Positions 22,984 to 43,732 of a stretch of DNA of 64,000 bases are shown here, piece after piece (the stretch's first letter is position 1; each line of letters begins with the position of its first letter). This DNA is from Ignavibacteriota bacterium (GTDB lineage: Bacteria; Bacteroidota; Ignavibacteria; UBA10030; UBA6906). The notes beneath the pieces were generated by a model, which saw only the letters and a program-made list of their open reading frames with translations, searched no databases and was not told the DNA's origin. The stretch is from contig CAWDEM010000008.1 of NCBI GenBank assembly GCA_963801355.1, forward strand, positions 2,592,001 to 2,656,000, in the 5' to 3' direction. The translations under genes were made by a program, and so were the position numbers.

Positions 22984-23139
22984 ATGGTGGGAACAATATA
23001 TACCATCACTATGTCCGGAGAGGATCATCAGGTGATCCTAATCCACGTTGGAATTCGTCGATTTTCAGAGTATCTTGCAGTATCCGTATCCCGTTCGCCA
23101 CCCCGCGGTTTTCCCTTCACACTTCTTTGGAACCGCAAT

Positions 23140-26100: not shown

Positions 26101-26451
26101 CAGGAGCTGTCCCGGTCAATCATCGTGAACACCGGAACCAGCTCGGTTGGCCCGGAGGGTGCAGTGCCAGTGCAATTTGAGCTGCTTCAGAATTTTCCAA
26201 ACCCCTTCAACCCGTCGACAACAATACCCTACGCCCTGCCGCGAGAAAGCCGGGTAACGCTGACGCTCTTCAATACCCTGGGCCAACGCGTCGGTGAGAT
26301 TGTGAACGGGATTCAGTCCGCCGGGTACCATAACACCGTGTGGCAACCGGCACTTGCTTCAGGTGTGTACTTCTATCGTCTGGAGGCGGCGGCGGTCGCG
26401 CAACCCGGCGACCGGTTTTCGCAGACCCGATCGCTCGTGCTGATCCGGTAG
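23140..26451 (+). CDS. Secreted phosphodiester glycosidase (NAGPA-family) multidomain protein with T9SS-type C-terminal domain
   Basis: Signal peptide; VNADFF, HPRTFVG, VDGRQ, NFDGGGST, ERSVAN; C-terminal LLQNFPNPFNPSTTI...ASGVYFYRL. Confidence 0.88.
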   Translation: MNTRNSCRLLLVAAATLVISIQALAQPGLVSRRAVAPGVVHKQFLLAGPNTLDVLEVTLADPFITLESYRPDGLVRTTAQASAIDRLGHRVIGSVNADFFSFETGWPVGNQVVNGVIALGVSSSRSHLAIGADRQPYIDRLAFRGTVWSRGGTSYTISQVNNDRAASTLAFFTTFRGATTRTDASGTECAVEFLDPPRAGDTLRARIIALGTGNMVIPPSGGILSAGSGAPAEFISANLQIGDTVHIFLGFNRPLHSIVQTLGGAGRFLAGGRNVTDSMSTLEGIGTSFTGARHPRTFVGFNADTSLLYLCTVDGRQTSSIGMTFAEMASFMVSIGASEAFNFDGGGSTTMAVRGEIVNSPSDPAGERSVANSLHVICTAPLGTLHALSVLPGRSEVFQGGTLQFTATGTDEFYNPIDIPADAVWEADPVIGTITSSGLFTASKTNDSGWVKLRWQGVADSVRVVVHLLKFITVYPSALVMVPGERVTLLVRAEDSAGRKVTLDNHQVTFASPAAAINADALGLVTARDFGSGALGVSLDTMRADVPFNFSGNDTAIVADPMRSLFNWDTTLVNLSATGVQVELTSDPVVTAPPALRIAYAIPDVHGELHLKCNIPLSGRIDSLFIRANGSGNGDTIRFVVRDKDGDLFLLTTGGAVTWSNEWRTPGVTTSKAVPFGAPAMDYPLSITQIRIGFGRASLAGGMITGTLVLDDLGAHYPLRTVAPQVLFDFESGISGWYTPLQANAAQEVGIDRNASTLVASAEQAYQGSYSGKWTFVDDAASTADWDVRITRNTTGDLGNMLRGSYIGAWVYASGETSTELQTVVRGGNGQICAGPRFPVHHHGWKLIGTKLDEGLFSPYLTSGVITDAGNKFNGFRLCGPNSVLSGQTRVYYIDKLVTSALTVPTGFTGFSVEWSDPLARLHWTVNSEISIDRYAIERGAGGVFVEIGSMQGGGNVDTTVEYEYVDTPPANASVEYRIRQITNDGGQELSRSIIVNTGTSSVGPEGAVPVQFELLQNFPNPFNPSTTIPYALPRESRVTLTLFNTLGQRVGEIVNGIQSAGYHNTVWQPALASGVYFYRLEAAAVAQPGDRFSQTRSLVLIR

Positions 26452-28948: not shown

Positions 28949-28987
28949 CGGTCACCTACGGAAATTATGGAATTGGTCATGTGCGAT

Positions 28988-29770
28988 TCACCCTTCTCCG
29001 TTTCTCACCGCAATCATCTGGGCCACAATGCTCACAGCAATCTCTTCGGGTGTATGCGAACCGATTGGGAATCCCACCGGGGCGTGCACCGCGGCCAACC
29101 GGGCATCGGAGACCCCCTCGTGCCGCAATTCCTCAAAGAGACCGTGGATCTTCTTCGCGCTGCCAAGCAGGCCGATGTACTTGAAAGGCTGATCGAGCAA
29201 CTGCCGAATGACGGTACCGTCATGCTGGTGACCATGGGTCATAATGACGGCATATGCCTGTGCGGGGAATGTAAGATGGGAAAGGATCTCTTCGTACGGA
29301 CCGCAGACCGTCCGGCCCGCACGGGGATGTTTCTCGGATGAGGCCCACTCCGGCCGGTTGTCGTACACGGTGACATTGAACTCAACCCACGATGCAAGCC
29401 AGGAGAGTGCAACACCGCAATGGCCACCGCCGAATATGATGAGCGGGACTCCACCGTGCAGCGGCTCGACCAGAATTTCCTCCACGCCACCACACACCAT
29501 GGCCGTCGCGAATTCCGCCCCGGTCCTGCTCCCCAGGTCAAACCCCCACTTCACCTCCGACACCGGACGTTCGGCCATCACCTTGTCAATCACGAGCTTT
29601 TCCAGCTCTCCCCCGCCGATTGTCCCGCGGATCGAGCCTTCGGCAAGGACAATCATCTTCATCCCCAGCCGCGCGGGAGTGGAGCCCGTCGTTGTGACGA
29701 CGGTGGTCAGCCAGGAGGGTTGATGTCCCCGTGCCGCGTCGGCCATCATGTCATAGAAGTCCCGCATCAT
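28988..29770 (-). CDS. XdhC/CoxI family molybdoenzyme maturation factor
   Basis: GSTP..GMKM, GTIGGG, CGG, FGGGH, MTHGH, YIGLLGS, PVGFPIGSHTPEEIAVSI. Confidence 0.92.
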   Translation of the reverse strand: MMRDFYDMMADAARGHQPSWLTTVVTTTGSTPARLGMKMIVLAEGSIRGTIGGGELEKLVIDKVMAERPVSEVKWGFDLGSRTGAEFATAMVCGGVEEILVEPLHGGVPLIIFGGGHCGVALSWLASWVEFNVTVYDNRPEWASSEKHPRAGRTVCGPYEEILSHLTFPAQAYAVIMTHGHQHDGTVIRQLLDQPFKYIGLLGSAKKIHGLFEELRHEGVSDARLAAVHAPVGFPIGSHTPEEIAVSIVAQMIAVRNGEG

Positions 29771-29773
29771 TCT

Positions 29774-30367
29774 TCACATCTCCGTTTGTGGTAGTGCGGA
29801 GAAATCCCCCGGCGTGTTGATGTTCCGCAACACACCCGGATCGTCGACCGCAAGACGTGTCACCGGTACTCCCGATGCCGCAATAATCGCGCGCAATGTG
29901 TCGCCATCTCCGGATGCGCGCACGCGGGCAAAAAGGGCCCGCGGAATAAGCACCGGGTGCCCTGCGCGACCCTGGAATGATGGTTTGATGACCGCATCGC
30001 CTTCGCAACGACCCGCTGCGACGAGTCTCCTGACGGTTTCCGCCTGCACACACGGATGATCCACCGGCAGTATCACCACGCTTTTACACGAGGAAACCAG
30101 GTCCATGCCCAACCTCACGGACGAGAGCATATCTCCGGCATCGGACGGATTACTCACAAATGGCGTCCCGGGAACCTCGGCGACCGCCCATGCTCGCTCT
30201 TCCGGCGATACCACACCTGCCACTACATCGGCACCTGCTGCACGGAGCATACGAACACACCGGTACAGAAAAGTCTCTCCGCCGGTCGAAAGCCGCAACT
30301 TCGCCGTGCCGATTCTCCTCCCCTTCCCTGCCGCCAGTACGAGGGCGCCGATGACGCCGGCCGTCAT
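29774..30367 (-). CDS. mocA: Molybdenum cofactor cytidylyltransferase (MocA-like)
   Basis: LAAGKGRRIG, LPVDHP, GHPV, NINTP; Mo-hydroxylase context. Confidence 0.8.
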   Translation of the reverse strand: MTAGVIGALVLAAGKGRRIGTAKLRLSTGGETFLYRCVRMLRAAGADVVAGVVSPEERAWAVAEVPGTPFVSNPSDAGDMLSSVRLGMDLVSSCKSVVILPVDHPCVQAETVRRLVAAGRCEGDAVIKPSFQGRAGHPVLIPRALFARVRASGDGDTLRAIIAASGVPVTRLAVDDPGVLRNINTPGDFSALPQTEM

Positions 30368-31821
30368 GCCTGCAGACCGACTTCGGTGTTGAACCTGGCG
30401 ATCAATTGGTCGAACTCCTTGACTTCTTCCTCAAACCGCTCGGTCCAGTAGGCCGGATCCCATTGCGCATTGAGTTCTTCCGTTGTCTTGCCTTGCTGCT
30501 CGACCCAGGTATAATACTTCAGATTGTGAATCGCTTTGCGATCGATATACGTGAGTTCCTTGAAGAAGTCTGTCCGTTGGTGCAGCAACGGACCTTCCAG
30601 GTCGCGGTGTCCCTGAACCGTCGAATATGCGCCGCGCTCCCCGCGCAGTTCTTCGAGCCGTGAGTGATACATCTCCGCGGAATCAGTGAAGACGGTGAAG
30701 ATAACGTCCTTCTCCGAGAGATCGTAGTACCGCGCTGTCTTGATAGCAGCCAGAAGATTGCAGATCGAGGAGATGCCAAGCAATGGCAACGCATCGAGAG
30801 TGGTTTCAGGGGCACCCGACGCACGCAAGACGGTTCTCCCGGGTTCTTCGTTGAAGAGGCGCAGAATGCGCATGCAGTCTTCGTCGTCAACCGCCGCCAC
30901 GCAATCCGTGGAACGGACATTGTGCACCCAGGGCACATGCTTGTCACCTATCCCTTCGATGCGGTGCCCACCAAAGCCGTTCATCAGGAGGGTCGGGCAT
31001 TGCAGCGCTTCGGTGGCGACGACTTTCACACCGGGATAGACTTTCTTGAGATAGTCGCCCGTGGCAATTGTGCCTGCGGATCCGGTCGCAGAGATGTATG
31101 CTGCGGGGCGCGCGCCCGGACAGACAGTCCGGTGGACTTCTTCCACCGCCGGTCCGGTGACGTTGTAGTGGAAGATCGGATTGCCGAATTCGTCGAACTG
31201 ATTGAAAATCACATTCACAGGATCTTCACGGAGTTCCCAGCACTTGTCGTAGATTTCTTTCACGTTTGATTCGCATCCGGGAGTGGCAATCACCTGCGCC
31301 CCGATTTGCTGCAGCCAGGTGAAACGTTCGCGGGACATTTCTTCCGGAAGGATCGCCACTGCAGTGCAGCCGAGCAACGCACAGTCGAATGCCCCGCCGC
31401 GGCAATAGTTGCCTGTGGAAGGCCACACTGCGCGATCCCGCTCCGGATCGAACTCCCCGCTGACCAGCCGCGGCACCAGACAGCCGAATGCAGCCCCCAC
31501 TTTGTGTGCTCCGGTCGGAAAGAACTTGCCGGTCAGACCTATCACACGCGCGCGCACGCCCGTAATCTCCCCGGGTATTTCGATCCAGTTGACTCCGCCG
31601 AATCCGCCCGTCTTTACATCGTTTTTCCACGTAATGCGAAACAGGTTCAGCGGATTCACATCCCAGAGCCCGACTCCGGCAAGCCGCCGCGTGATCGCGG
31701 GGGGAATGGTCTCCGGATCGCGCAGCTGGCTGAATGTCGGGATGACAATCTGCCTGTCGCGGCACCGCCGCGCGGTTTTCCTGATGACATCCGGATGCAT
31801 GGTCTTGATGATGGTTGACAT
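30364..31821 (-). CDS. PLP-dependent fold-type II enzyme of unknown specificity
   Basis: FPTGAHKVGA PLP lysine, PSTGNY, GSAGT, HRIEGIG. Confidence 0.8.
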   Translation of the reverse strand: MSTIIKTMHPDVIRKTARRCRDRQIVIPTFSQLRDPETIPPAITRRLAGVGLWDVNPLNLFRITWKNDVKTGGFGGVNWIEIPGEITGVRARVIGLTGKFFPTGAHKVGAAFGCLVPRLVSGEFDPERDRAVWPSTGNYCRGGAFDCALLGCTAVAILPEEMSRERFTWLQQIGAQVIATPGCESNVKEIYDKCWELREDPVNVIFNQFDEFGNPIFHYNVTGPAVEEVHRTVCPGARPAAYISATGSAGTIATGDYLKKVYPGVKVVATEALQCPTLLMNGFGGHRIEGIGDKHVPWVHNVRSTDCVAAVDDEDCMRILRLFNEEPGRTVLRASGAPETTLDALPLLGISSICNLLAAIKTARYYDLSEKDVIFTVFTDSAEMYHSRLEELRGERGAYSTVQGHRDLEGPLLHQRTDFFKELTYIDRKAIHNLKYYTWVEQQGKTTEELNAQWDPAYWTERFEEEVKEFDQLIARFNTEVGLQA

Positions 31822-31856
31822 GGGTATCCTGGTTCTCTACGTCGTGTATGGAGGAT

Positions 31857-33047
31857 TCACATCCCCTTCTCCAGAGTCCGCGCGGTGCCGCGACGGACGA
31901 GTGACTCCATCGCTTGCACCGGGTCACTCATGCGCGTCAGAAAAATGAGTGCCGCAATGACGAATGGTTTGAAACTCGCCTGCCGGTAGGTGGCGATGCG
32001 GTAGCGCTCGAAAACTCTTGCGGCCACCTCACCCTCTGTGCAGCCAACCCCGGAGATGTCGGCGGGCAGACAATGCATGTACAGCGCCTTCCCCTCCCTT
32101 GTCGACGCCATTTTCTTTTCATCGCATTCCCATGACCGATGGCGGGCGTTTTCCGCAAGGCACCGGCCCTCCAGTGCTGCAAGTCCCGTGCGGTCTCCTT
32201 TCTGCAGCAAGCCTGTGCGCTCCTGCATCACGTGGAATGAGGCCCAGGATTTCGGATACACTACATCCGCGCCGGCAAAGGCTTCTTCCATGGAGTGGCT
32301 GACCGTCAACGATCCCCCACTCGCCTTTGCCTGCCTGCGGGCGCGCTCCACGACGTCGGGAATCAACTCGTATCCTTCGGGATACGCGAGCGACACATCC
32401 ATGCCGAACCGCGTCAGGAGGCCGATGATCCCCTGCGGCACCGAGAGCGGCTTGCCGTAACTCGGCGAGTACGCCCAGGTCATCGCGATCTTTTTGCCGC
32501 GCAGCGACTCCAGCGATCCAAAGCAGGTCTTCAACTGCATCAGATCCGCCAGCGTCTGCGTCGGATGGTCAATATCGCACTGCAGGTTGATGATACTCGG
32601 CCGTTGATGCAGCACGCCCTGCGCATACCCTTCTTCCACAGCAGCACCGACCTCGCGCATATACCTGTTTCCCTCTCCGAGATACATGTCATCCCGGATG
32701 CCGATGACTTCAGCCAGAAACGAAATCATATTTGCGGTCTCACGCACAGTTTCCCCATGTGCGATCTGCGACTTCACTTCGTCGAGTTCTGCAAGACCCA
32801 GCCCGAGAGCATTTGCCGCCGAAGCGAAGCTGAACCGCGTCCGCGTGGAGTTGTCCCGGAATATGGAAATTGCGAGACCGGTATCGAACACCCGGCAGGA
32901 TTTTCCCTGCCGGTGGAGTTCTTTCAAGCAGTCGGCAACGGTGATGACCGCCCGCAACTCGTCGTCCGTGTGATCCCACGTGAGCAGGAAATCCTTGTGA
33001 AAAAGGGCGGGGTGAACGGATGCAAGTTCGGCGATGTAGTCAGGCAT
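31857..33047 (-). CDS. ygeW: Knotted carbamoyltransferase YgeW
   Basis: FRDNSTRTRFSF, QCDIDHPTQ, WAYSPSYGKPLSVPQG, YMHCLPAD; start MPDYIAE. Confidence 0.95.
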   Translation of the reverse strand: MPDYIAELASVHPALFHKDFLLTWDHTDDELRAVITVADCLKELHRQGKSCRVFDTGLAISIFRDNSTRTRFSFASAANALGLGLAELDEVKSQIAHGETVRETANMISFLAEVIGIRDDMYLGEGNRYMREVGAAVEEGYAQGVLHQRPSIINLQCDIDHPTQTLADLMQLKTCFGSLESLRGKKIAMTWAYSPSYGKPLSVPQGIIGLLTRFGMDVSLAYPEGYELIPDVVERARRQAKASGGSLTVSHSMEEAFAGADVVYPKSWASFHVMQERTGLLQKGDRTGLAALEGRCLAENARHRSWECDEKKMASTREGKALYMHCLPADISGVGCTEGEVAARVFERYRIATYRQASFKPFVIAALIFLTRMSDPVQAMESLVRRGTARTLEKGM

Positions 33048-33081
33048 GAGTTGTTCCTGATGATGAGGCATGGGTCTGCAT

Positions 33082-33573
33082 TCAGGGTTGAGGGTGAAGG
33101 GTCCGGGGAGCGGCCTCATAGAAAACGGCAGCGGCTTCGATCGCATCCACGATTTGCTGGTAGCCGGTACACCGGCAGAGGTTGGAGTAGATTGCCCGGC
33201 GGATCTCCCCCCGCGAAGGACGCGGATTGTGCAGGAGGAATGCGTGGGCGGTCAATACCATTCCCGGCGTGCAGAAGCCGCACTGGATCGCCCCGGCGTC
33301 GATAAATGCCTGCTGCAGCGGATGGAGTCCGCCGTCGATGCCCTTCAGCCCTTCAATGGTCAGCACCCGATGTCCGGCGATATCCTGTACCTGTTTGGTG
33401 CAGATACGCATGGGCTGCTCATCAACCAGCAGCGTGCATGCGCCGCAGGCACCGATGTCGCAGGCATTCTTGACTCCCGTCAAATCAAGATCCTCGCGGA
33501 GGAATTCAATAAGACGCTTTGTGCGCTGATGCTCGCTGACGGGATACTCGGTGCCGTTGACGGTGATGGTCAT
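33082..33573 (-). CDS. Mo-hydroxylase 2Fe-2S subunit (CoxS/XdhC-type)
   Basis: CDIGACGACT, QCGFCTPG, NLCRCTGY; start MTITVNG. Confidence 0.92.
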   Translation of the reverse strand: MTITVNGTEYPVSEHQRTKRLIEFLREDLDLTGVKNACDIGACGACTLLVDEQPMRICTKQVQDIAGHRVLTIEGLKGIDGGLHPLQQAFIDAGAIQCGFCTPGMVLTAHAFLLHNPRPSRGEIRRAIYSNLCRCTGYQQIVDAIEAAAVFYEAAPRTLHPQP

Positions 33574-33574
33574 G

Positions 33575-35866
33575 CTATCCTCCGACACTCGTGGATGCCG
33601 GTGCATGCGCGGATGACCCAGCGGGACGGATGGGCAGGCGGTGATAACGGACGCCGGTGGCGTTAAAAATCGCATTTGCCACCGCGGGCGCCATGAGCTC
33701 GTTTGTCGGTTCGCCGATGCTCTTTGCCCCCGAAGGGGAATTGGGATCGGGGTTCTCCACGATGATGGCGCGCATTTCGGGCATGTCCAGCGAGCGGGGA
33801 ATGCGGTAGGTATTGAGATTGGTATTGACAATCTTTCCGCCATCCAGGATGAGTTCTTCGTGCAGGGCATAGCCGATGCCCATTGCCATGCCGCCGAAGA
33901 ACTGCCCTTCAATCATCTCGCGATTTACCGCCCGACCGACATCATGGGCCGCAATGGCATTCAACAACCTCACCTTCCCGGATGTGCGATTGACCGTCAG
34001 CTCCACCGCCTGGCATCCGTACACCCATGTGAAATACGCTTTCCCCTGACCGTGCTCTTCATCCCATGAAACAGCAGGTGCCTGGAAGACGCCGAACGCG
34101 TGCGGAAATTGCTGCCTGCGGAACATTTCGGTCACGGTTTCATCAAAGGTCACCGACCGCCCGTTTCCTTCGACCGTCAAGCGCTCCTCGCGGAACTCGA
34201 TGTGTTCGGGACTGCATTGCAGCATCAACGCTGCCACGCCCGCCATTCTCCGGTGGAGGTCCCGGGCCGCAAGGGTCACAGCGCCACCTCCCATGATCGT
34301 CCCGCGTGAGGCAACAGTCGTCCCGCTGTCCGGGATAACCGAGGTGGAGGAACGTCGGTAGTGAATGCGCTCCCTGCGGATGCCGAGCTCCTTCGCGGCC
34401 AGCAGCACCATGGCGCTCTCCGCACCCTGCCCGTTTTCATGGACCCCGGTTTCCACGAGAACGGACCCGTCGGCCTGCACATTGATCATCGCGGCACAGA
34501 AATCCACTCCTTCCGCACCCAGGCTCACACCGCGGTAGCTCATGGCAAGTCCGACGCCGTACTGCTCTTCCTCATCTGCCTTGCCGTATGTGCAGCGTGC
34601 CAGCTTGGCTTCATAGTCGAATTCCTTTACGACGGTGTCAAGCACCTGCCTCATCGCCACCGTGTGATCATCCAGCTCCTGTCCCGTGATGGTCACGCTT
34701 CCCTGTTTCACCATGTTTTTCCGGCGGACATCAAGCGCGGGCATGTGCAGCCGGTCGGCAGCGATTTCAATCAAGGAATCCACCGCGAAATTTATCTGGG
34801 GAGATCCAAATCCCCGCATTGCGCCGGTGACGACGTTGTTGGTGTACACAGCGGTCGTGTCGCACTGTACATTGGGAACAACGTAGGGACCACAGCATTG
34901 GACCGTGGATCTCCAGGTCACCCACGGTGTCACCGAGCAGTATGCACCGGCATCTGCAACGATCCGGCAGCGCACCGCATTGATCATGCCGTCACGCGTC
35001 AGGCCCATGGTGTACGATATCCGGTAGGGATGCCGCTTATAGCTCTCCCGGATTGACCAATCACGCCGGTACATCAGCTTGACCGGAACACCGGTGATAC
35101 TTGCCGCAAGCGCCGCACGGGCGCAGACGATGGCCGCAGTATCATCCTTCCCTCCGAACCCTCCACCCATGGGGGTGCCGATCACCTCCACGCGCGCAAG
35201 CGGCATCCCCAGCAGTGCCGACACAACACGGCGCGTGCTGAAGGGGTGTTGCATGCTTCCATACACCTCCATTACACCGTCATCGCGCTGCCGGCACACC
35301 GCCACTTCGGGTTCCATATATGCGTGTTCGACACACTGGGTCTCAAAATGCTCCTCGAGCACGAGATCGGAACAGCGGAGCCCCTCGTCGACATCGCCCC
35401 GGCGGACCCGGTGGGTATTCACGACGTTTGTCCCGTGTGCCTCGTGGACCAGCGGAGAACCATCACGCAGAGCGTCCTCAGGATCGAGAACAGCCGGCAA
35501 CGGTTCGGCCTCAACGCGCACCAGGCCGGCCGCCTTGATCGCCTCGTCACGGGTTCGTGCAACGACGAGCGCCACAACATCTCCATGATAGCGGATCTTG
35601 TCGTCGGCGAACACCCGGAAGTCGTGGACAATCTGGCCGACCCTGTTGGACCCGGGGACATCCCGCGCGGTCAGAACGCGGACAACGCCCGCGGCACGCT
35701 CGGCTGCATCCGTATGCACTGCGATCAGCCGGGCATGGACAAAGTCTGTATACACCGGCGCTGCATGCAGCATATTGACGAACTTCAGGTCGTCAGTGTA
35801 CTTCGTCCGTCCTGTGACCTTGGCAATGGCATCATTCCGCCATGCACGCCGGTCTACGTCGGCCAT
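33575..35866 (-). CDS. Xanthine dehydrogenase-family molybdopterin-binding subunit
   Basis: KVTG..YTDD, GGGFGGK, AMRGFGSPQ, GQG, ASRGT, KSIGEP. Confidence 0.93.
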   Translation of the reverse strand: MADVDRRAWRNDAIAKVTGRTKYTDDLKFVNMLHAAPVYTDFVHARLIAVHTDAAERAAGVVRVLTARDVPGSNRVGQIVHDFRVFADDKIRYHGDVVALVVARTRDEAIKAAGLVRVEAEPLPAVLDPEDALRDGSPLVHEAHGTNVVNTHRVRRGDVDEGLRCSDLVLEEHFETQCVEHAYMEPEVAVCRQRDDGVMEVYGSMQHPFSTRRVVSALLGMPLARVEVIGTPMGGGFGGKDDTAAIVCARAALAASITGVPVKLMYRRDWSIRESYKRHPYRISYTMGLTRDGMINAVRCRIVADAGAYCSVTPWVTWRSTVQCCGPYVVPNVQCDTTAVYTNNVVTGAMRGFGSPQINFAVDSLIEIAADRLHMPALDVRRKNMVKQGSVTITGQELDDHTVAMRQVLDTVVKEFDYEAKLARCTYGKADEEEQYGVGLAMSYRGVSLGAEGVDFCAAMINVQADGSVLVETGVHENGQGAESAMVLLAAKELGIRRERIHYRRSSTSVIPDSGTTVASRGTIMGGGAVTLAARDLHRRMAGVAALMLQCSPEHIEFREERLTVEGNGRSVTFDETVTEMFRRQQFPHAFGVFQAPAVSWDEEHGQGKAYFTWVYGCQAVELTVNRTSGKVRLLNAIAAHDVGRAVNREMIEGQFFGGMAMGIGYALHEELILDGGKIVNTNLNTYRIPRSLDMPEMRAIIVENPDPNSPSGAKSIGEPTNELMAPAVANAIFNATGVRYHRLPIRPAGSSAHAPASTSVGG

Positions 35867-37203
35867 AAGGTCCTCCCTCTCCGCTCGCCGGGATTGCGAA
35901 GCGTTCCCTGCCCCGCAACCTCCTGACCGCGAAGAAACACATGTTCGAAACGCAACCGGGAAGACATACCGGGGAACGTTTCATGCACGTCAGCCAGTGA
36001 TGACCGCACGGGTTGTGCGGTCGCCGAGATTCTGCAGATGGCAAGGTCCGCATCTGCACCGGGTTGAATGACACCCTTGCGTGGATACACCCCCAGAAGT
36101 CGCGCAGGATTCGCCGAGACCCGGCGTGCCACTTCCAGCATCGGATCATGGCCGCTTTCCGCAAAAAGGGCGAACACCAAGTGAGGCAACGCTCCGATTC
36201 CGGCGAGGCCCTGGGGAACTTCACGCATCGACGCCGGGTGCCCGTCCTTGTCGCTCCGCACAAATGCGCAATGATCCGTCGCAAAGAGATCGATTGCCCC
36301 CTGTATTGCCAACGCTGCCATGTCTGCCCGCATCTGCGGACTCCTGAGCGGCGGTGAGCAAATCCACCTGTGCCCATCCTGGCGTTCCAGCCATGTCTCG
36401 TCAAGGAACACATAGTGAGGAGCGGTCTCGCAGCTCACGCGCACGGACGCCCGCGCGTCCTGGATCAACGCAACGCCTTCCGGAGTCGAGACATGCACGA
36501 TGTGGACCGCCGCCTGCTGGCGTCCAGCGCGCTGCAGCACTTCCTGGATCGCAAGACATTCCGCCTGTGGCGGCCGCGATCGCGCATGGGCGATCGGATG
36601 CCGCCACTCCTCAACCGGGAGCCGGATGGCCGCAAGCGCTGCATCGTCTTCGCAGTGAATGAGAAATTGCACTCCCCGGCCCCCCAGTCTCGCGAAAATC
36701 CGCTCGAGCTGATCATAGTCGGAAAAAATGCCTGCGCCTTTGTATGTCGTGTAGAATTTGAACAGACGGAACCCCTGTTCGATCAGCCGATCGATGGCAT
36801 TCCACCCCTCACGGTCGAACCGTGTGGGCGTGAGGTGCCACCAATAATCCGCATAACTCTCACCACGTGCCTTCTGTTGGGCTATGGCGACCGCCGACTC
36901 CAGCCGCACTCCGGCCGACTCAGTTACAAACGTCGCAATGGTGGTGATGCCGTTTTCCACCGCCACGCGTGTCCCCGAACGGTAATCATCGGCCAGCGCG
37001 CGGCCTCCGATGACATCCGCAATGTGCGTGTGCACGTCAATCAAACCGGGCAATACGTATGCACCCTCCGCCTCAACGATGTGATCCGCATCGGCGGCGA
37101 GCGCGTCGGCGACGTCGGCGATGCGAGCATCGCGCAGGAGGAGATCCGCACGCTGGATGCGGTCTTCGAAACAGACCAGGCCGTTGCGAATCAGTGTGCT
37201 CAT
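35854..37203 (-). CDS. Dihydropyrimidinase/hydantoinase (HyuA/HydA-like)
   Basis: PGLIDVHTH, FKFY, HCE, HVST, ETAPHY, SPPLR, ATDH, GADAD. Confidence 0.88.
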   Translation of the reverse strand: MSTLIRNGLVCFEDRIQRADLLLRDARIADVADALAADADHIVEAEGAYVLPGLIDVHTHIADVIGGRALADDYRSGTRVAVENGITTIATFVTESAGVRLESAVAIAQQKARGESYADYWWHLTPTRFDREGWNAIDRLIEQGFRLFKFYTTYKGAGIFSDYDQLERIFARLGGRGVQFLIHCEDDAALAAIRLPVEEWRHPIAHARSRPPQAECLAIQEVLQRAGRQQAAVHIVHVSTPEGVALIQDARASVRVSCETAPHYVFLDETWLERQDGHRWICSPPLRSPQMRADMAALAIQGAIDLFATDHCAFVRSDKDGHPASMREVPQGLAGIGALPHLVFALFAESGHDPMLEVARRVSANPARLLGVYPRKGVIQPGADADLAICRISATAQPVRSSLADVHETFPGMSSRLRFEHVFLRGQEVAGQGTLRNPGERRGRTLWPT

Positions 37204-38432
37204 GAATGCAGATCCCGGAGAAATTTTCGAGCGGACTCGAGATCAGGCGGCACAGGAGCCGGTACGACGACGCCCCGCATTGCGGCGTCCACATCTTTCA
37301 GACCGTGTCCCGTGACGAGTAACACAATGGATGCATCCGGATCCACATGCTTGTCGGCAAGCTCCTTGCGCAGGCCCGCAACAGGTGCTGCAGCCGCCGG
37401 TTCGGCAAACACTCCTGTCGTTGATGCCAGGAGGCGCTGGGCGGTGAGTATTTCTTCATCGGTCACGGTCACCGTTCCGCCGCCGGATTCAAGAATGGCC
37501 TTGCGTGCAAGGTACGCGTTGCTCGGCGTGCGAACGGCTATGGAATCGGCAATGGTGGATGGTGATGGCGCATCGCTGTACGACCCGGTCTGCACAAACC
37601 TGTGGATAGCATCGGAGTGTTCCGCCTGGACCCCGAGCAGGCGCGGCAGCCGCTCGATGATGCCGGCCGCACGGAGATCAAGAAACGCCTTGTGGATGCC
37701 GGCGATGATGACCCCGTCACCGACGGGCACCACGATCAGATCCGGCACGGCGTTGCGGTTCTGTCTGAAGATCTCGAGCCCCGCGGTCTTCTTCCCCTCG
37801 ATGGTCAGCGGGTGATACGCCGTATTGCGATTGAGGCCGCCTTCCTCTGCCGAATACTCGAGTGAGAGTGCGAATGCGTCATCGTAGGACCCTTCCACCG
37901 GGACTACGGTCGCCCCGTACAGGATCATTTGTACCAGTTTCGGCCGGGGTGCGGACGCAGGTACGAAAATGACGGCCCGGAGTCCTGCAGATGCACAGAC
38001 CGCTGCAAGCGCGCTGGCGGCATTTCCCGTGGATGCAGTGACGATCTTCTTTTCACCGAGACGGCATGCCTCGGCCGCCACGAGAAATGATGCCCGGTCT
38101 TTCAACGATCCGCTCGGATTTACTGCATCGTTCTTGACATGCAGGTGAGCACACCGCAACGCTTCCGCAAGCCGCGGTACGGCAAGGAACGGCGTCTGGC
38201 CGACCGCCAGAGGGGGGAAATACTGGCGCTCAACCGGCAGGAACAGATCATCATCGGGCACCCGACTGTTTGCCGCCTCACAGAGCTCAACGGCATCAAA
38301 AACTACTTCGAGCACGCCCTGCAGTGGTATTCCTCTCCTGGACGCACGACCGCATGCGGGACAGAGGTAACGCACCTCATCACGCGCAAACGTCATGCCG
38401 CACAATGTGCAACGGTAGCGGAAGGGAATCAA
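37200..38432 (-). CDS. Threonine synthase-like PLP enzyme
   Basis: N-terminal CxxC..CxxC, NPSGSLKDR, ASTGNA, EGKKT, PVGDG, TGHGLKD. Confidence 0.85.
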   Translation of the reverse strand: MIPFRYRCTLCGMTFARDEVRYLCPACGRASRRGIPLQGVLEVVFDAVELCEAANSRVPDDDLFLPVERQYFPPLAVGQTPFLAVPRLAEALRCAHLHVKNDAVNPSGSLKDRASFLVAAEACRLGEKKIVTASTGNAASALAAVCASAGLRAVIFVPASAPRPKLVQMILYGATVVPVEGSYDDAFALSLEYSAEEGGLNRNTAYHPLTIEGKKTAGLEIFRQNRNAVPDLIVVPVGDGVIIAGIHKAFLDLRAAGIIERLPRLLGVQAEHSDAIHRFVQTGSYSDAPSPSTIADSIAVRTPSNAYLARKAILESGGGTVTVTDEEILTAQRLLASTTGVFAEPAAAAPVAGLRKELADKHVDPDASIVLLVTGHGLKDVDAAMRGVVVPAPVPPDLESARKFLRDLHS

Positions 38433-39634
38433 CGCAGTTCTCCTGACAATGTACCCACCAGGCCGGCGTAGAATGCCGCGGCCCGGGTCAGGTCGTCAAC
38501 AGGTGTTGCTTCGTTCGGCGCATGCGCGTACACTTCATTGCCCGGCCCCAACCCCAGACAGGGGATCCCGCAGATGCCGGCGATTGCCACACCGTTCGTG
38601 CTAAACGTCCACTTATCCACCACGGCCTCCCGCCCGAAGAGCTTCCTGTACGCCTGCGTGGCGGCCTCCAGGTGCGGTGAATTTCCGGGCATTGTCCATG
38701 TGGGATAGTATTTCTCCATCGGGTATACTTTCCCCGTGTACGCCGCCTCATGGTATGTCAGGAGCGAGACAACGGCATCCGCGACGCCGGCGGTGGCGGC
38801 GGCCGCCTGCACTTCCGCCACTGCGCTCTCTCTGGTTTCCCCTGCAGTCAACCGCCTGTCGAGATGAAGGCGTGCACCATCGGCGACGGCACACAACGAA
38901 GGCGACGAGGATACCACCTCGGTGACGGTCACTGTTCCCTTTCCCAGAAACGGGTCGGTGCGGAGCCTCTCATTGAGCCGCTCGATTTCCAGGGCAATCC
39001 GCGAAGCCTTGTAGATCGCATTGACGCCCCGCTCGGGCGCCGATCCATGGCAGCTGACACCATCGACGGACACATGCATCTCCATCCGTCCGCGATGTCC
39101 CCGGTAAATATTCATGTTTGTCGGCTCGGTAATCACCACGAGCTCGGGCCGGATGTTCTCCTCCCGGATCAAGTGAAGCCAGCACAGACCATCGCAGTCC
39201 TCCTCCATCACGGTGCCGGTACAGAGCACCGTCAGCTCCTTGCCGAGACCGAGTTCTTTGATCAACCGGGCGGCGGTGAGCATGCTGGCCATCCCCCCCT
39301 TCTGATCAACCGTACCCCGTCCCCACACTTTACCGCCCTCAACCTTTGGTGCGAAAGGATCGGTATGCCATTGATGCACATCGCCCGGATATACGGTGTC
39401 GACGTGCGCATCGAAGGCGATCACGCGCGGACCGTTGCCGATCCTGCCGATAATGCTGCCCAGGCCGTCGACGTCAATACTGTCGAAGCCGATCGACACC
39501 ATCATCTGTCTGATGACCTGGATGACGTCCTTCTCCTTTGACGAGAAGGAAGGTGTACGGACGAGGTCGCACAGCATGCGGACGGTCTCGTGTTCGTGGG
39601 CGCGTGCATGGTCAAGAATTGACAGGTAGGTCAT
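38429..39634 (-). CDS. ygeY: M20 family metallo-amidohydrolase YgeY
   Basis: DAHVDTV, GRGTVDQKGG, MEEDCDG, GHRGR, FSTNGV, AHAPNE. Confidence 0.92.
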   Translation of the reverse strand: MTYLSILDHARAHEHETVRMLCDLVRTPSFSSKEKDVIQVIRQMMVSIGFDSIDVDGLGSIIGRIGNGPRVIAFDAHVDTVYPGDVHQWHTDPFAPKVEGGKVWGRGTVDQKGGMASMLTAARLIKELGLGKELTVLCTGTVMEEDCDGLCWLHLIREENIRPELVVITEPTNMNIYRGHRGRMEMHVSVDGVSCHGSAPERGVNAIYKASRIALEIERLNERLRTDPFLGKGTVTVTEVVSSSPSLCAVADGARLHLDRRLTAGETRESAVAEVQAAAATAGVADAVVSLLTYHEAAYTGKVYPMEKYYPTWTMPGNSPHLEAATQAYRKLFGREAVVDKWTFSTNGVAIAGICGIPCLGLGPGNEVYAHAPNEATPVDDLTRAAAFYAGLVGTLSGELR

Positions 39635-39640
39635 GGGAGC

Positions 39641-39720
39641 GTATGAACGTGTATGAAAGTGTAATAAGGTGTATTAAGGGTTACTAAAGTGTATGAAAGT
39701 GTATTCAGGCGTATGAAGTT
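39641..39720. repeat. Eight degenerate 10-nt tandem repeats (consensus GTATGAAAGT) between ssnA and ygeY
   Basis: gtatgaacgt gtatgaaagt gtaataaggt gtattaaggg ttactaaagt gtatgaaagt gtattcaggc gtatgaagtt. Confidence 0.9.
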
Positions 39721-39737
39721 GAACTGGTCGAGATCGC

Positions 39738-41081
39738 TCAGGTTAACTGTGTGAACCGGTCCCAGACGCGACGGGCGGATTCCCGTGCGTGGGCCATAAC
39801 TTCCTCTTCATCGATATCCATCATGAGTGCACCGTCTTTCATCAGTATTTCTCCACCGACAATGGTCGTCACGACTCGTCCTCCCATCATGCCGAAGACG
39901 AGGTGACCCGGCAACGATTCATCCGTCAAAGGCGTTGGCGGAGCATACTCAACAATTGCGATGTCTGCCAGAGCCCCTTCCCGGAGTGTGCCGAGATCCA
40001 TACCCCAGAGGCGGCTGACAATAGCGGGATTCCCCGACCAGAGAGCTGAAGTCAGTTCCGGAAATCCCACGGAAGGGTTGCCCTGTTTGTGCCGCTGCGA
40101 CCATATCCCGGCACGGAGTTCTTCGCGCATGTCGGCCGTCATCGCGTCAGTGCCGAGGCCGACCGTAATGCCCTGCTTCTGGCATGCTCCGACATCGGCG
40201 ATGCCGACGGCATTGTTGAGATTGGACTGTGGATTGTGCACCACCATCGTACCGGTGGAAGCAAGCAGGTCGCGTTCGGCATCGGACAGATGCACGCAGT
40301 GTGCGGCCACGCTCCCGGTGCCGAGCAGCCCGAACCGGTGAAGGCGTTCCACCACCCGGACACCGTGACGCTCACGCGTGATGCGCTGGTCGGCTTCTGA
40401 CTCCGCGACGTGCATGTGCACACCGCTCTGCGTCTCCTTCGCGGTGGCACCCGCAGCCTCGAGGGTCGATCCGGAAAGCGTGAAGGAAGCATGCAGGCCG
40501 AATAACCCGCGAACGCGATCGTGCGGCGTCTCCCGGCAGCGGCGCAGAAAGTCGCGGTTCTCCTCGATCCCTTGCCGCGCGGCTTCAATGCCGTCGCGGT
40601 CGGATACTTCGTAGCAGAGGCATGCACGCAGTCCCGTCGACAGAACCGCACGGCTGATGATCTCCAGCGAGCCACGAATCGCACAGGGGCTGGCATGATG
40701 GTCAATCAGCGTCGTTGTGCCGCTGCGGATCGCTGCAAGCAATGCAGGAAGCGCACTGTGATAACAGTCCTCAAGCGTCAAAGACTTGTCCAGCCGCCAC
40801 CAGAGGTTCTGGAGAATTCCCAGGAAATCCGCGGCAGGCCCCGCGGGCGTCAGGCCGCAGGCAAATGTGCTGTACAGATGTGTATGAGCGTTGATGAATC
40901 CCGGCAGGACGAGTTTTCCGGCAAGATCCATCGTGGGCACACCGTTCGCCGGAAACGAGAGGCGGGGCGCGATTCTGGCGATGCGCCCATCCTGTATGAG
41001 CAGGGCGTGCTCCGTGAGAACACGCGGCGGCTTGGCGGGATCGGCCAGGAGGCCGTTCACCAGAAGAAGTGATGATGGCAT
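39738..41081 (-). CDS. ssnA: Aminohydrolase SsnA
   Basis: NAHTHLYS, LWWRLD, IDHHASP, YEVSDRDG, GLHASFT, HVAE, HNPQSN, GTD; start MPSSLL. Confidence 0.9.
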   Translation of the reverse strand: MPSSLLLVNGLLADPAKPPRVLTEHALLIQDGRIARIAPRLSFPANGVPTMDLAGKLVLPGFINAHTHLYSTFACGLTPAGPAADFLGILQNLWWRLDKSLTLEDCYHSALPALLAAIRSGTTTLIDHHASPCAIRGSLEIISRAVLSTGLRACLCYEVSDRDGIEAARQGIEENRDFLRRCRETPHDRVRGLFGLHASFTLSGSTLEAAGATAKETQSGVHMHVAESEADQRITRERHGVRVVERLHRFGLLGTGSVAAHCVHLSDAERDLLASTGTMVVHNPQSNLNNAVGIADVGACQKQGITVGLGTDAMTADMREELRAGIWSQRHKQGNPSVGFPELTSALWSGNPAIVSRLWGMDLGTLREGALADIAIVEYAPPTPLTDESLPGHLVFGMMGGRVVTTIVGGEILMKDGALMMDIDEEEVMAHARESARRVWDRFTQLT

Positions 41082-41083
41082 GG

Positions 41084-43582
41084 TTAGATTTCCTGCATCA
41101 TCGCGCGTTCGGCGGCGGTGCGCTGGCGCATGTGCAACGCGCCGGTAAAACACTTTTGTACACAGAGGGAACACCCGACACACTCTGCCGGATCGATCAC
41201 CGGATACCGTCGCGTATCCATCGTTATCGCAAGATACGGACAGCGTGCACAATTGCCACATTGTGTACAGAGAGATTCAACCAGCTCTGGGACAGTCGTC
41301 GAAACCGGAAGATCATCGAAAGCCGTGATCGGCTCCGGCAACGCCGAACCGATCAGCGCGGCGACGGATGCCATGCCGCGGTCGGCGAGCAGGTAGCTCA
41401 GCCCGGAATGCAACTCTTCGACAATCCTCAATCCGTATTTCATCACGACAGTGCAGAACTGTACGGTGGAAGCACCAAGGGCGAGAAAGTTGGCCGCCGC
41501 CCGGTAGTCCATCGGACCACCATTTCCCGAAATGGTTACCCCCAGGCCCGCGGCCCTGGCCAGCGTGAGATTGCTGATGGGAAGCACCCCTTCGCCGGAC
41601 ATCCCCATGATAATGCCCTCGTCCCAGCGCCTGGCGGGGGATCTCCGGAAGGCCAGTGTCGGGAAGCTGTTGGCAAGTGTCACCCCGGCCTTCTTGTGCG
41701 GATAGCGTTGCAATACATCCCTCACCTGGATCATGATCGATCGGATGGACGTGACGGCGCCGGTGAGTTTGAAGAGCTTGGGAACGGCGGGATCCCCTGC
41801 CTCCATCACCCAATCGACGATCTTCGCCGTCAGCCCGGCATCCTGCGACACCAGATCACCCCGGGTGCCATCGCCGCCTTGCGGGCAGGAAAGACTATAC
41901 TCGATACCCATCGCACCGGCGTCTTCCAGCAAGCGCGTATTTGCCTGCCACACCGCACGATCGGCCGGGTCATCACCGGTCACCGGCCCACCCGTAGATG
42001 CCATCGTGAGCCGGTCGGGATACTCGCGCACGAGCCGGCCGACTTCGCCGGCAACGCGACGGAGGTCGTGGGCCGATACATTGTCACAGTTGCCGTACGT
42101 GGAAGCGCCGTACACCACCATGTACTCGCCCGGAATATGTACAGGCACACCGGCAAACGCGGTTTTCATGATGCCGCCGGACCACCCTGCATCATAGGCC
42201 TTCTTCATCTGTGCGTACCCATCGGTATGCGGTGCGGCCGAAAGGAGGAACGGAGTCTGGAGAGTACGGCCGAAGAAGTCGCACGTCAGCGGCACGGGCA
42301 GCAGGGTTTGTCCTGCCAGCATCACACGGCTTTTCACGAAGCGCTCCCGTGCCGGCCGCGTGCCGCCGTTCAGGTACGCATCAATTTCGGCGGCCGCATT
42401 CTTGCCGGATGCCACCGCCTCCACCACGGTCGCCGCCCCGTGCACCATATCGCCCGCAAAGAATACCCCTTTCCGCTTGCGCGGCACGATGCTCGACCTG
42501 CTGCCGATCGCAGCAACGACCAGATCACATGCGCGGAACGCCGGCTTCTCCGTGCGGTGCGGCACAAAATTGCGCGGATCAGGTTTCTTTCCCCTTCCAA
42601 GGTACTGTCTGACCGTCATCACTCCCCGTACCCGGCCCTTTGCACTGACAATTTCCGTCACCCGGGTACACGGAGTGACGTCTACGCCATGTTCAAGCAG
42701 GAGTGTCCGTTCATACGCGGTGAGCGGCATATGCTCCGCTTTGCGCCGGTAGATGATTTCCACGTGTGCGGCACCGCAGCGTGCCGCAGTCGTGGCGCAA
42801 TCAACTGCAATCGCCCCACCACCGATGATCATCACACGCTTATTCTTCAGAGGGATTCTTGTGTGATCTTCGAGATACTTCTGCCATGGGACCGCGTGCA
42901 GTCCACCCGGCATGTCCGGCGCAACCGGTGTATCCTGCCCGATCGTCACGAGGACAGCCGCATATTCCCCGCTCCTGATGAGCACATTCGGCGAGAATAT
43001 CGCCGTCTCCGGAATCAGATGAATATCACCGAGGCCGAGAACAAAATCGATGTCGCGTGTGAGAACCTTCCGATCGAGTCGCCATCCTGGAATGAGATGG
43101 CACATTCCTCCCGCCCGCGTGCTCAGATCGAAAATATCAACGGTATACCCGAGCTGCCCGAGAACCGCGGCCCCACCCAAACCGGCAGGCCCTCCGCCAA
43201 CCACAGCAATTTTTATCCCATTGCCGGACCGCACGGGAAAATCGGGCATCCCCGCGCCAAAGGCTTTTTCGATGATTGTGGATTGGACGGCCGGGATGTT
43301 CACCGCATGGTCAAACGTACGGCGAACGCATGCCCGCATACAGAGGTAGTCTGGGCACAATGCACCGCATGTACCACCGAGGGGATTGCTGCCCATGATG
43401 ATGGCAGCAGCACGGCGAAAATCGGAGGGTGCTCCGACACGGCTCGCCATGATGAAATCAGCCGGGGAGCAATCAGCTGGGCATGCTTCCTTGCATGGCT
43501 TTTCCTCACACGACTCACAGCGCTGCAGTTCGTCGCGAAGTTGGGCGTCTGTCAACATCCCCGTCGGCCTCTTGTGCCCCAT
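41084..43582 (-). CDS. Single-chain dihydropyrimidine dehydrogenase-like flavoprotein (PreT-PreA fusion)
   Basis: GltD/PreT-like N-half (RCESCEEKPC..CP, GGGPAG, GGGAIA); PreA-like barrel (AGWSG..KT, LSCP, KLT, GNGG); C-terminal 2x4Fe-4S. Confidence 0.88.
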   Translation of the reverse strand: MGHKRPTGMLTDAQLRDELQRCESCEEKPCKEACPADCSPADFIMASRVGAPSDFRRAAAIIMGSNPLGGTCGALCPDYLCMRACVRRTFDHAVNIPAVQSTIIEKAFGAGMPDFPVRSGNGIKIAVVGGGPAGLGGAAVLGQLGYTVDIFDLSTRAGGMCHLIPGWRLDRKVLTRDIDFVLGLGDIHLIPETAIFSPNVLIRSGEYAAVLVTIGQDTPVAPDMPGGLHAVPWQKYLEDHTRIPLKNKRVMIIGGGAIAVDCATTAARCGAAHVEIIYRRKAEHMPLTAYERTLLLEHGVDVTPCTRVTEIVSAKGRVRGVMTVRQYLGRGKKPDPRNFVPHRTEKPAFRACDLVVAAIGSRSSIVPRKRKGVFFAGDMVHGAATVVEAVASGKNAAAEIDAYLNGGTRPARERFVKSRVMLAGQTLLPVPLTCDFFGRTLQTPFLLSAAPHTDGYAQMKKAYDAGWSGGIMKTAFAGVPVHIPGEYMVVYGASTYGNCDNVSAHDLRRVAGEVGRLVREYPDRLTMASTGGPVTGDDPADRAVWQANTRLLEDAGAMGIEYSLSCPQGGDGTRGDLVSQDAGLTAKIVDWVMEAGDPAVPKLFKLTGAVTSIRSIMIQVRDVLQRYPHKKAGVTLANSFPTLAFRRSPARRWDEGIIMGMSGEGVLPISNLTLARAAGLGVTISGNGGPMDYRAAANFLALGASTVQFCTVVMKYGLRIVEELHSGLSYLLADRGMASVAALIGSALPEPITAFDDLPVSTTVPELVESLCTQCGNCARCPYLAITMDTRRYPVIDPAECVGCSLCVQKCFTGALHMRQRTAAERAMMQEI

Positions 43583-43598
43583 AGCAGTACCCGGTAGT

Positions 43599-43638
43599 GT
43601 ATGCTGTAAAACATACCATTTGCGTACTGCAGAATCAA
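43599..43638 (-). promoter_or_regulatory. Putative promoter of the purine-catabolism cluster with an overlapping inverted repeat
   Basis: TTGATT-17nt-TATGTT; GTATG-N8-CATAC at 43599-43616. Confidence 0.5.
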
Positions 43639-43732
43639 TAGAGTTGCACGCACACCCCGGCCCGCACATACCGCAACGGCACTTGCTTGGCGGAAAAAAG
43701 TTGCGTAGAGTGGATGCAACCTCCCGGAGGCG

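Follow-up and report, generated by a model that had tools for sequence, protein, structure and literature searches.

Background

It was only in 2025 that the anaerobic urate pathway was solved, and the solution is limited to Enterobacteria and Clostridia of the gut. The uricolytic cluster of Escherichia coli K-12 is depicted in the preprint texts of Li et al. (10.1101/2025.05.19.654654) and Liu et al. (10.1101/2025.04.24.650524) as ygeW-ygeX-ygeY-hyuA-yqeA ... mocA-ygfK-ssnA-ygfM-xdhD. For clusters of the Clostridioides difficile/Clostridium sporogenes type these texts present UacX and UacY, the selenium-dependent XdhAC as DOPDH, and YgfK as DOPOR. According to the preprint text of Li et al. 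(10.1101/2025.05.19.654654), reductases of the PydA or F420 type stand in for YgfK in other clusters: a PydA homolog without the FAD domain takes its place in C. difficile and a putative F420 enzyme in Chloroflexota. YqeBC and SelD were reported in every urate-cluster strain of the library described in the preprint text of Liu et al. (10.1101/2025.04.24.650524). The operon described here lies in a window of 64,000 nucleotides (contig CAWDEM010000008.1, positions 2,592,001 to 2,656,000, assembly GCA_963801355.1) of an Ignavibacteriota bacterium, and combines genes of this urate pathway with another type of reductase and of molybdenum enzyme and with two uncharacterised enzymes dependent on pyridoxal phosphate (PLP). 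The genome assembly comprises 8 contigs and 4.8 Mb and is 100% complete.

Gene content and conservation of the operon

The operon is formed by eleven co-oriented and mostly abutting genes on the minus strand (28988-43582, Table 1), all of which had been named in the initial annotation and are present. We propose, with a probability of about 0.7, that its products form a variant of the reductive route for urate via 2,8-dioxopurine, with substrates and a sequence of steps modelled on those of Li et al. and Liu et al. The proposal is based on the SsnA, YgeY and YgeW equivalogs, on the recurrent synteny, on the related loci that carry YgfK and on the PLP enzyme genes that track ssnA. By this analogy the variant would present four changes with respect to the known pathway: a reductase of the dihydropyrimidine dehydrogenase (DPD) type, an XdhA-like molybdenum enzyme without FAD subunit, an unlinked carbamate kinase, and a pair of PLP enzymes at the place of YgeX.

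Families were assigned with Pfam and NCBIfam models at their equivalog cut-offs, and identities were calculated against the translations of the annotated E. coli K-12 record. The core of the operon is SsnA, YgeY and YgeW. SsnA reaches equivalog level both with NF005540, at 494.8 bits against a cut-off of 444, and with TIGR03314 (463 bits, cut-off 455.5), is 34% identical to its E. coli counterpart from end to end and is the sole copy above cut-off in the genome. YgeY (NF009555, 519.5 bits, cut-off 321) and YgeW (NF005538, 652 bits, cut-off 453) are above equivalog as well, with 51% and 65% identity to the respective E. coli proteins. The hydantoinase is 31% identical to E. coli HyuA, also over the full length.

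A profile of the thrC-like gene identified at least 585 relatives among one-genome-per-species contigs, and the best 80 of these at least 585 were compared by tblastn of the eleven proteins of the window; all locus counts given here refer to those 80, and taxon names are the record titles of metagenome-assembled genomes (MAGs). The titles comprise Ignavibacteriae, Bacteroidota, Verrucomicrobiota (including Opitutae and Limisphaerales), Acidobacteriota (including Holophagaceae and Aminicenantes), Cloacimonadota, KSB1, Fidelibacterota, Planctomycetota, Myxococcota, Spirochaetota and others. MAGs labelled with many environmental phyla share the syntenic cluster of the window, and the recurrent order is reductase-ssnA-ygeY-thrC-like-(hyuA)-Mo-FeS-ygeW-PLP485, PLP485 being the CysK-fold enzyme of 485 residues. 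This arrangement is far beyond chance: dozens of unrelated MAGs repeat the order. At E<1e-10 and coverage >60%, with many of the loci ending at contig ends, ygeY was identified in 63 of the 80, the Mo subunit in 62, ssnA in 53, ygeW in 50, hyuA and PLP485 in 44 each and the reductase in 35. The closest locus among the 80, in a MAG labelled Ignavibacteriae (L020), shares eight genes with the operon in unchanged order, at 71-86% identity. When the criteria were tightened, the gene immediately upstream of thrC-like was ygeY in 52 of the 73 loci with room for it, and the gene immediately downstream of ygeW was PLP485 in 37 of 42.

The family of the reductase varies: the DPD-type enzyme (>=45% identity) is found in 37 of the 80 loci, 17 contain full-length canonical YgfK instead of it in the same module, and no reductase was seen in 26, many of them at contig ends. 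Linked genes were carbamate kinase (19/80) and an XdhB-like FAD subunit (15/80), and YqeC was linked in none (0/80). The thrC-like protein of the window shares only 41-44% identity with that of most relatives of the same family and reaches 60-67% with those of distant phyla, which, as far as sequence identity goes, hints at lateral spread of this type of cluster. As a separate observation, many loci labelled Verrucomicrobiota (L025, L054, L065, L079, L083, L085, L087, L091, L093 and others) present no hydantoinase between the thrC-like gene and the Mo subunit, and carbamate kinase is often linked in such loci.

Within the phylum of the window, 151 genomes were sampled and ssnA was identified in 13 of them at E<=1e-60, the genome of the window included. 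The thrC-like gene is present in 12 of these 13 (8 at E<=1e-80 and 4 at E 1e-74 to 1e-79, three of the latter near ssnA on the same contig) and PLP485 in 11. Ten ssnA-negative relatives from the same order contain neither gene (both at E<=1e-80, the only threshold used for ssnA-negative genomes), and one of them presents DpaL above cut-off. Both PLP enzymes track ssnA within this sample, whose counts are descriptive because kin are not independent.

The initial annotation had described an alternative version of the pathway with non-orthologous replacements and possibly different end products, in which canonical ygfK, ygeX/dpaL and carbamate kinase are absent and other families occupy their place. 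Genome-wide profile searches recovered none of ygfK, dpaL, yqeB and yqeC above cut-off. The best YgfK match reached 269.6 bits (cut-off 835.3); neither TIGR01747 (E<=0.001) nor NF006058 recovered DpaL/YgeX in the genome, and a tblastn search with the E. coli YgeX protein (E<1e-5) gave no hit; and YqeB and YqeC gave no match. At the places of YgfK and DpaL stand the DPD-type reductase and the ThrC-like plus CysK-fold pair, conserved across many phyla. Carbamate kinase is absent from the cluster and the window but not from the genome, where an unlinked copy of 358 bits lies about 340 kb from the cluster (contig C8 2250823-2251746), beside ornithine carbamoyltransferase. The core of the earlier claim is thus maintained, its extension to carbamate kinase, which is not replaced, has to be withdrawn, and the PLP pair as a simple substitute of YgeX is unproven. 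The molybdenum enzyme, which the earlier claim did not count among the replacements, is not orthologous to E. coli XdhD or to the selenium-dependent type either.

SelD is present (contig C4 1340952-1341872) with one in-frame TGA and probably contains selenocysteine. Bona fide XdhAB is encoded at ~149-153 kb of contig C8 (XdhA 529.4 bits, cut-off 467; XdhB 998 bits, cut-off 849.5). Directly behind XdhA and XdhB lie two further genes, one RnfC/PduS-like and the other for a PduT-like microcompartment shell protein (contig C8 ~149203-154886, locus L101 5203-10887). Neither uricase nor OHCU decarboxylase was found genome-wide, therefore no other urate route was found in the genome.

The reductase and the molybdenum enzyme

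The reductase comprises an N-terminal 4Fe-4S domain, a GltD/PreT-like FAD/NAD(P)H part, a PreA/DHOD-like FMN barrel and a C-terminal 2x[4Fe-4S] domain, with Pfam matches to Fer4_20, Pyr_redox_2 and Fer4. Its NCBIfam scores are below cut-off for both PreA (NF006183, 189.7 bits, cut-off 335) and YgfK (TIGR03315, 141.7 bits, cut-off 835.3). The nearest solved relative is pig DPD (1gt8), aligned in three pieces, residues 67-874 being collinear with 73-1008 (E 1.1e-45); since this collinearity extends over all domains, the protein is considered a fusion of the PreT-PreA type in which the FAD/NAD(P)H half is included. SLSCPQ is aligned opposite NLSCPH of pig DPD, and the Cys is kept. We take this residue to be the catalytic Cys671 of DPD, which fits with the sole difference in the motif between two of the PDB sequences compared, a change of Cys to Ala. 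A Ser is aligned at the position of what is presumably the uracil-binding Asn668 of pig DPD. E. coli YgfK is alignable to the reductase across the GltD-like part only (26%). The enzyme is proposed as a candidate 2,8-dioxopurine reductase in place of YgfK, a swap that has precedent because replacements of YgfK in C. difficile and Chloroflexota are described in the preprint text of Li et al.

The same resemblance brings in another explanation, by which the cluster degrades pyrimidines or a different N-heterocycle, the reductase being a true DPD, the hydantoinase a dihydropyrimidinase and YgeY an M20 ureido-acid amidase. Mammalian DPD as the nearest solved relative would suit it, as would dihydropyrimidinase as the best NCBIfam family of the hydantoinase (TIGR02033, 274 bits, below the equivalog cut-off of 393.25) and a molybdenum enzyme outside the characterised urate-reducing clades. 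However, the reductive pyrimidine route needs no molybdenum hydroxylase, SsnA or YgeW, and all three are conserved here, SsnA and YgeW as equivalogs; canonical YgfK is part of the same module in the 17 loci mentioned above, and the reductase does not reach the PreA cut-off and has Ser at the presumed uracil-binding position. Degradation of pyrimidines is accordingly considered improbable, and the variant urate pathway is preferred.

The large subunit of the molybdenum hydroxylase contains the Pfam domains Ald_Xan_dh_C, MoCoBD_1 and MoCoBD_2. Its best NCBIfam match is XdhA_XDHase with 506.5 bits (cut-off 780), and it fails the XdhD model TIGR03313 (225.9 bits, cut-off 1101.9) and the Se_dep_XDH model TIGR03311 (424.3 bits, cut-off 830.45). 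Identity is 30.5% to E. coli XdhA and 26.5% to E. coli XdhD. The small subunit (Fer2_2 and Fer2) shares 41% identity with XdhC, the corresponding iron-sulfur subunit of E. coli. No FAD subunit was identified in the operon, and the only FAD_binding_5 gene of the genome is part of XdhAB. The MocA-like protein contains NTP_transf_3 and scores 104.7 bits with TIGR03310, below the cut-off of 186.45; the XdhC-family protein contains XdhC_CoxI and XdhC_C, is below its NCBIfam cut-off and shares 32% identity with the N-terminal half only of E. coli YqeB. On the grounds of gene context only, the Mo/2Fe-2S enzyme is proposed as a urate 6-dehydroxylase, that is, an analogue of 2,8-dioxopurine dehydrogenase. 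Glu606 of XdhD was set aside as a comparison site, since the insertion that holds it is specific to XdhD and the position is not comparable.

The two PLP enzymes

The thrC-like protein matches PALP (257 bits), passes TIGR00260 (193.5 bits, cut-off 167.1) and is below NF006050 (227.5 bits, cut-off 303). It shares with threonine synthases (2zsj, 2d1f, 6cgq and 1uim; E 1e-49 to 1e-54) the type II fold, the PLP lysine, to which Lys111 is aligned, and the STGN motif. It differs from them in HPLTIEGKK at the site of NPxR[IL]EGQK (4/4 solved ThrCs), in GDGVI for GNAGN, in STGNA for STGNT and in an extra N-terminal zinc ribbon with four invariant Cys. His-Pro-Leu-Thr and Gly-Asp-Gly-Val-Ile are invariant in the 20 family sequences aligned (20/20). 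We assume that the arginine of NPxR is the residue to which the O-phosphohomoserine phosphate binds, in which case the thrC-like protein cannot be a threonine synthase.

Two ordinary threonine and cysteine synthases that just happen to sit in the operon would explain why the thrC-like protein passes TIGR00260 and why its relatives are called threonine synthase in public sources. Against this stand a second and better-scoring thrC elsewhere in the genome (274.9 bits, contig C8 107815-108780), the replacement of NPxR throughout the family, the score of PLP485 (104 bits, cysK cut-off 351) and the way in which both genes follow ssnA across genomes, so that such an explanation is very improbable. 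Judged by its sequence, the thrC-like gene is not the housekeeping threonine synthase.

PLP485 matches PALP with 63 bits, and its best NCBIfam family is cysK (TIGR01139, 104.1 bits, cut-off 350.95); no curated NCBIfam family covers the protein and its Protein Atlas names are generic only. Lys107 is aligned with the CysK lysine and the STGN loop of CysK is kept. An AlphaFold2 model (predicted local distance difference test, pLDDT, 85.3; predicted template modelling score, pTM, 0.89) finds its best Foldseek match in Staphylococcus aureus CysK (8sru, E 3.7e-16, TM 0.81 on the target), structures of CysK and cystathionine beta-synthase (CBS) being the best matches, and conserved helical extensions are located at both the N- and the C-terminus. 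The family is strongly conserved, with 75% mean column identity over 22 orthologs; 21 orthologs whose labels name various phyla are 55-75% identical to PLP485 of the window. A predicted complex between the thrC-like protein and PLP485 scored 0.00, which is uninformative either way.

Compared with DpaL/YgeX, the two enzymes have the same PLP fold type and would occupy the same place in the logic of the pathway, after YgeY, whereas the likeness is at superfamily level only (22.6% over 164 residues for the thrC-like protein; 46 residues aligned for PLP485). The preprint text of Li et al. (10.1101/2025.05.19.654654) indicates that 'YgeX' was coloured by PF00291, a domain that would capture both PLP enzymes too. 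From the conserved context we infer a function of the pair in the urate pathway.

The pair was also observed outside the cluster. In two loci labelled Myxococcota the thrC-like gene and PLP485 are back to back, beside an XdhC-family gene (L038 ~8241-12105 and L078 ~8421-12161), with no other pathway gene within the stretch available. The annotated neighbours of isolated ygeY/thrC-like and thrC-like/PLP485 pairs are unrelated genes and give no clue to a substrate.

A further explanation keeps the urate pathway and takes the PLP enzymes as an added branch or as a different ending, not as a substitute of YgeX. Examples would be a racemase with an L-specific lyase acting on D-diaminopropionate, a beta-elimination of urea from 3-ureido-alanine, or a beta-replacement by which the C3 unit is recovered in the form of serine or cysteine. 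It is favoured by a CysK-fold enzyme built for beta-replacement chemistry, by DpaL beside the pair in one locus and in two genomes (detailed below), by the pair without the remaining cluster in the two Myxococcota-labelled loci, by ygeY and the thrC-like gene alone by tblastn in five loci (L026, L033, L072, L073 and L094; in L072 the annotated context is unrelated to purines, and in L026 the M20 gene is not among the ORFs scanned), and by two conserved enzymes where one lyase step needs fewer. On the other side, DpaL is missing in 79 of the 80 loci and in 11 of the 13 ssnA-positive genomes, therefore something else must remove diaminopropionate, and the cluster conserves no extra gene for a different product. 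A branch or different ending is rather unlikely on balance. The pair may nevertheless catalyse a reaction other than simple deamination of diaminopropionate, given the coexistence with DpaL, the two enzymes for a single E. coli step and the cluster-free Myxococcota-labelled loci.

Proposed pathway and points against it

In the proposed variant of the urate pathway the unlinked XdhAB would make urate. The Mo/2Fe-2S pair, which has no FAD subunit and for whose maturation the operon encodes MocA and XdhC, would dehydroxylate the urate to 2,8-dioxopurine, probably without the YqeB/YqeC selenium cofactor. The DPD-type reductase would then dearomatise the 2,8-dioxopurine ring with NAD(P)H, and SsnA and the hydantoinase would open both rings to give 2,3-diureidopropionate. 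YgeW may free one ureido group as carbamoyl phosphate, which the unlinked carbamate kinase could convert to ATP, and YgeY would hydrolyse the second ureido group. The ThrC-like and CysK-fold enzymes would finally consume 2,3-diaminopropionate or its mono-ureido precursor, pyruvate and ammonia being the simplest products.

A bolder version is offered tentatively, as it has a clear balance of probability against it: the two PLP enzymes would perform a terminal chemistry unlike that of YgeX, and the operon would run without a selenium cofactor, its FAD-less molybdenum enzyme drawing electrons from another partner. In such chemistry the two enzymes could together act stereospecifically on D-2,3-diaminopropionate or 3-ureido-alanine, with the C3 unit possibly kept as an amino acid rather than as pyruvate. 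The electron partner would possibly be the iron-sulfur-rich DPD-type reductase.

Several observations weigh against the variant urate pathway or parts of it. With regard to the molybdenum enzyme, the Mo subunit is, by its sequence, not orthologous to either characterised 2,8-dioxopurine dehydrogenase; Glu606, highlighted in XdhD in the preprint text of Li et al. (10.1101/2025.05.19.654654), falls in an XdhD-only insertion that has no counterpart in the Mo subunit or in XdhA; the operon encodes no electron donor for the FAD-less enzyme; and YqeB/YqeC are missing, unlike in all urate-cluster strains presented in the preprint text of Liu et al. With regard to ring opening, the hydantoinase is below its equivalog cut-off, and no hydantoinase match was found in 9 of 10 loci labelled Opitutae/Opitutaceae, within the stretch available. 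With regard to the last step, a DpaL-like gene (coverage >=0.6) is present in one of the 80 loci (L031, confirmed with 312.2 bits, cut-off 276), beside both PLP genes, and DpaL is above cut-off in 2 of the 13 ssnA-positive genomes (G145 and G101), on contigs other than those of ssnA and the thrC-like gene; this coexistence weakens the case for the pair as a plain replacement of YgeX. Homologs of E. coli XanQ, UacT and GhxQ were absent from the genome at E<1e-5. Finally, no purine or molybdenum cofactor riboswitch and no Rfam family was detected, either at gathering score in the whole window or at E<=1 in 28500-44200.

Genomic surroundings

The features of the operon are listed in Table 1, with gene starts refined by alignment of orthologs and inspection of start codons. 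Neighbouring genes are separated by, or overlap by, 1 to 35 nt, as between the reductase stop and the ssnA start (2 nt) and between the stop of the Mo subunit and the start of the 2Fe-2S subunit (1 nt); the thrC-like, hydantoinase and Mo-subunit genes overlap with their upstream neighbours. The exception is the ssnA-ygeY spacer of 103 nt, most of which is filled by a tandem repeat. No such 10-nt repeat is present in the nine ssnA-ygeY spacers shown from 11 related loci examined, and it was set aside as a component of the system since it was not seen there.

Table 1. Coordinates of the operon features in the window.
Feature	Position	Strand	Remarks
DPD (PydA)-type fused reductase, 832 aa	41084..43582	-	ATG at 43582, where ortholog conservation begins
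SsnA aminohydrolase, 447 aa	39738..41081	-	
Tandem repeat, 10-nt period, 6.4 copies	39641..39704	.	Tandem Repeats Finder (TRF) score 58
YgeY M20 hydrolase (ureido-group amidase), 401 aa	38429..39634	-	
ThrC-like fold-type II PLP enzyme, 410 aa	37200..38432	-	
Hydantoinase/dihydropyrimidinase-family amidohydrolase (HyuA-like), 449 aa	35854..37203	-	
Molybdenum-hydroxylase large subunit, XdhA-like, 763 aa	33575..35866	-	
2Fe-2S subunit of molybdenum hydroxylase, 163 aa	33082..33573	-	Start by codon inspection
YgeW knotted carbamoyltransferase	31857..33071 or 31857..33047	-	Two possible starts
PLP485, CysK/CBS-fold PLP enzyme, 485 aa	30364..31821	-	
MocA-like molybdenum-cofactor cytidylyltransferase, 197 aa	29774..30367	-	
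XdhC-family molybdenum-cofactor maturation factor, 260 aa	28988..29770	-	

The operon is flanked by unrelated genes, glycoside hydrolases and an HrpB helicase. A foreign origin by composition was rejected, the G+C content of the cluster (0.59-0.62) being the same as that of the flanks. Promoter-like and terminator-like sites, identified by consensus scans, were no more frequent than in shuffled sequences. Next to the operon, a gene similar to beta-mannosidases of glycoside hydrolase family 2 (26497-28948, minus strand) looks split into an N-terminal ORF (28139-28948) and a remainder (26497-28359) that overlap in different frames, which suggests a frameshift or a sequencing error. Further away, a protein of 1155 residues (22984-26451, plus strand) contains a phosphodiester glycosidase domain and a match to the C-terminal sorting domain of the type IX secretion system (T9SS) below the Pfam cut-off (E 8.4e-4, 20 vs 27 bits). 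This weak match and the glycosidases around the cluster are loosely compatible with a polysaccharide-degrading bacterium of the FCB (Fibrobacteres-Chlorobi-Bacteroidetes) group. The non-enteric, non-clostridial lineage assumed in the initial annotation fits with the T9SS match and with the nearest cluster being found in an Ignavibacteriae-labelled MAG.

Comparison with known systems

The variant appears to be common in MAGs labelled with phyla of soil, peat, sediment and freshwater, and it would widen the ecological range of the pathway. Neither of the two 2025 preprint texts mentions 'threonine synthase', Verrucomicrobi-, Acidobacteri- or Bacteroidota (for Liu et al. the term was 'Bacteroid'), and 'cysteine synthase' is not in the text of Li et al.; these statements concern the running text of the preprints. 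In the collection of papers searched, no publication joins ssnA, ygeY and 'threonine synthase', no such variant is apparent in the titles and abstract openings of 15 of the 17 papers from 2025 on that mention 8-dioxopurine, and a preprint on uricolysis in Prevotella copri mentions none of the genes of the operon. The interest of the operon is carried mainly by the PLP pair, two highly conserved enzymes singled out here that automatic annotation names threonine synthase and cysteine synthase, and by its apparent independence from the selenium cofactor, which suggests that the urate pathway need not depend on YqeB/YqeC. The PLP enzymes, the molybdenum enzyme and the DPD-type reductase can each be tested directly with the substrates of the two 2025 papers.

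The reductase shares with DPD (pig 1gt8/1h7w and bacterial PreT-PreA) the order of five domains, an end-to-end alignment and the motif Cys. It differs in being below the PreA equivalog level and in its gene neighbourhood, as it always adjoins ssnA. The fused DPD-type form is not among the three reductase forms described in the preprint text of Li et al.

The E. coli K-12 cluster is similar in gene content, SsnA, YgeY, YgeW, a hydantoinase, a molybdenum hydroxylase, a flavin/Fe-S reductase and MocA being encoded together in both. The operon of the window lacks YgfK, YgeX, the YgfM FAD subunit, YqeB and YqeC, its carbamate kinase is unlinked, and it contains two extra PLP enzymes. Its molybdenum enzyme is formed by separate XdhA-like and 2Fe-2S subunits, whereas E. 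coli XdhD is fused.

The clostridial proteins were set against the operon by their published descriptions. The operon contains YgeW where those clusters contain UacY, and the markers YqeB and YqeC are absent from it. Its reductase keeps the FAD/NAD(P)H half, whereas C. difficile UacX is without it according to the preprint text of Li et al. As described in the preprint texts, the clostridial clusters are a precedent for swaps of the reductase and of the ureido-cleaving steps between lineages, and for a molybdenum enzyme that works without an FAD subunit.

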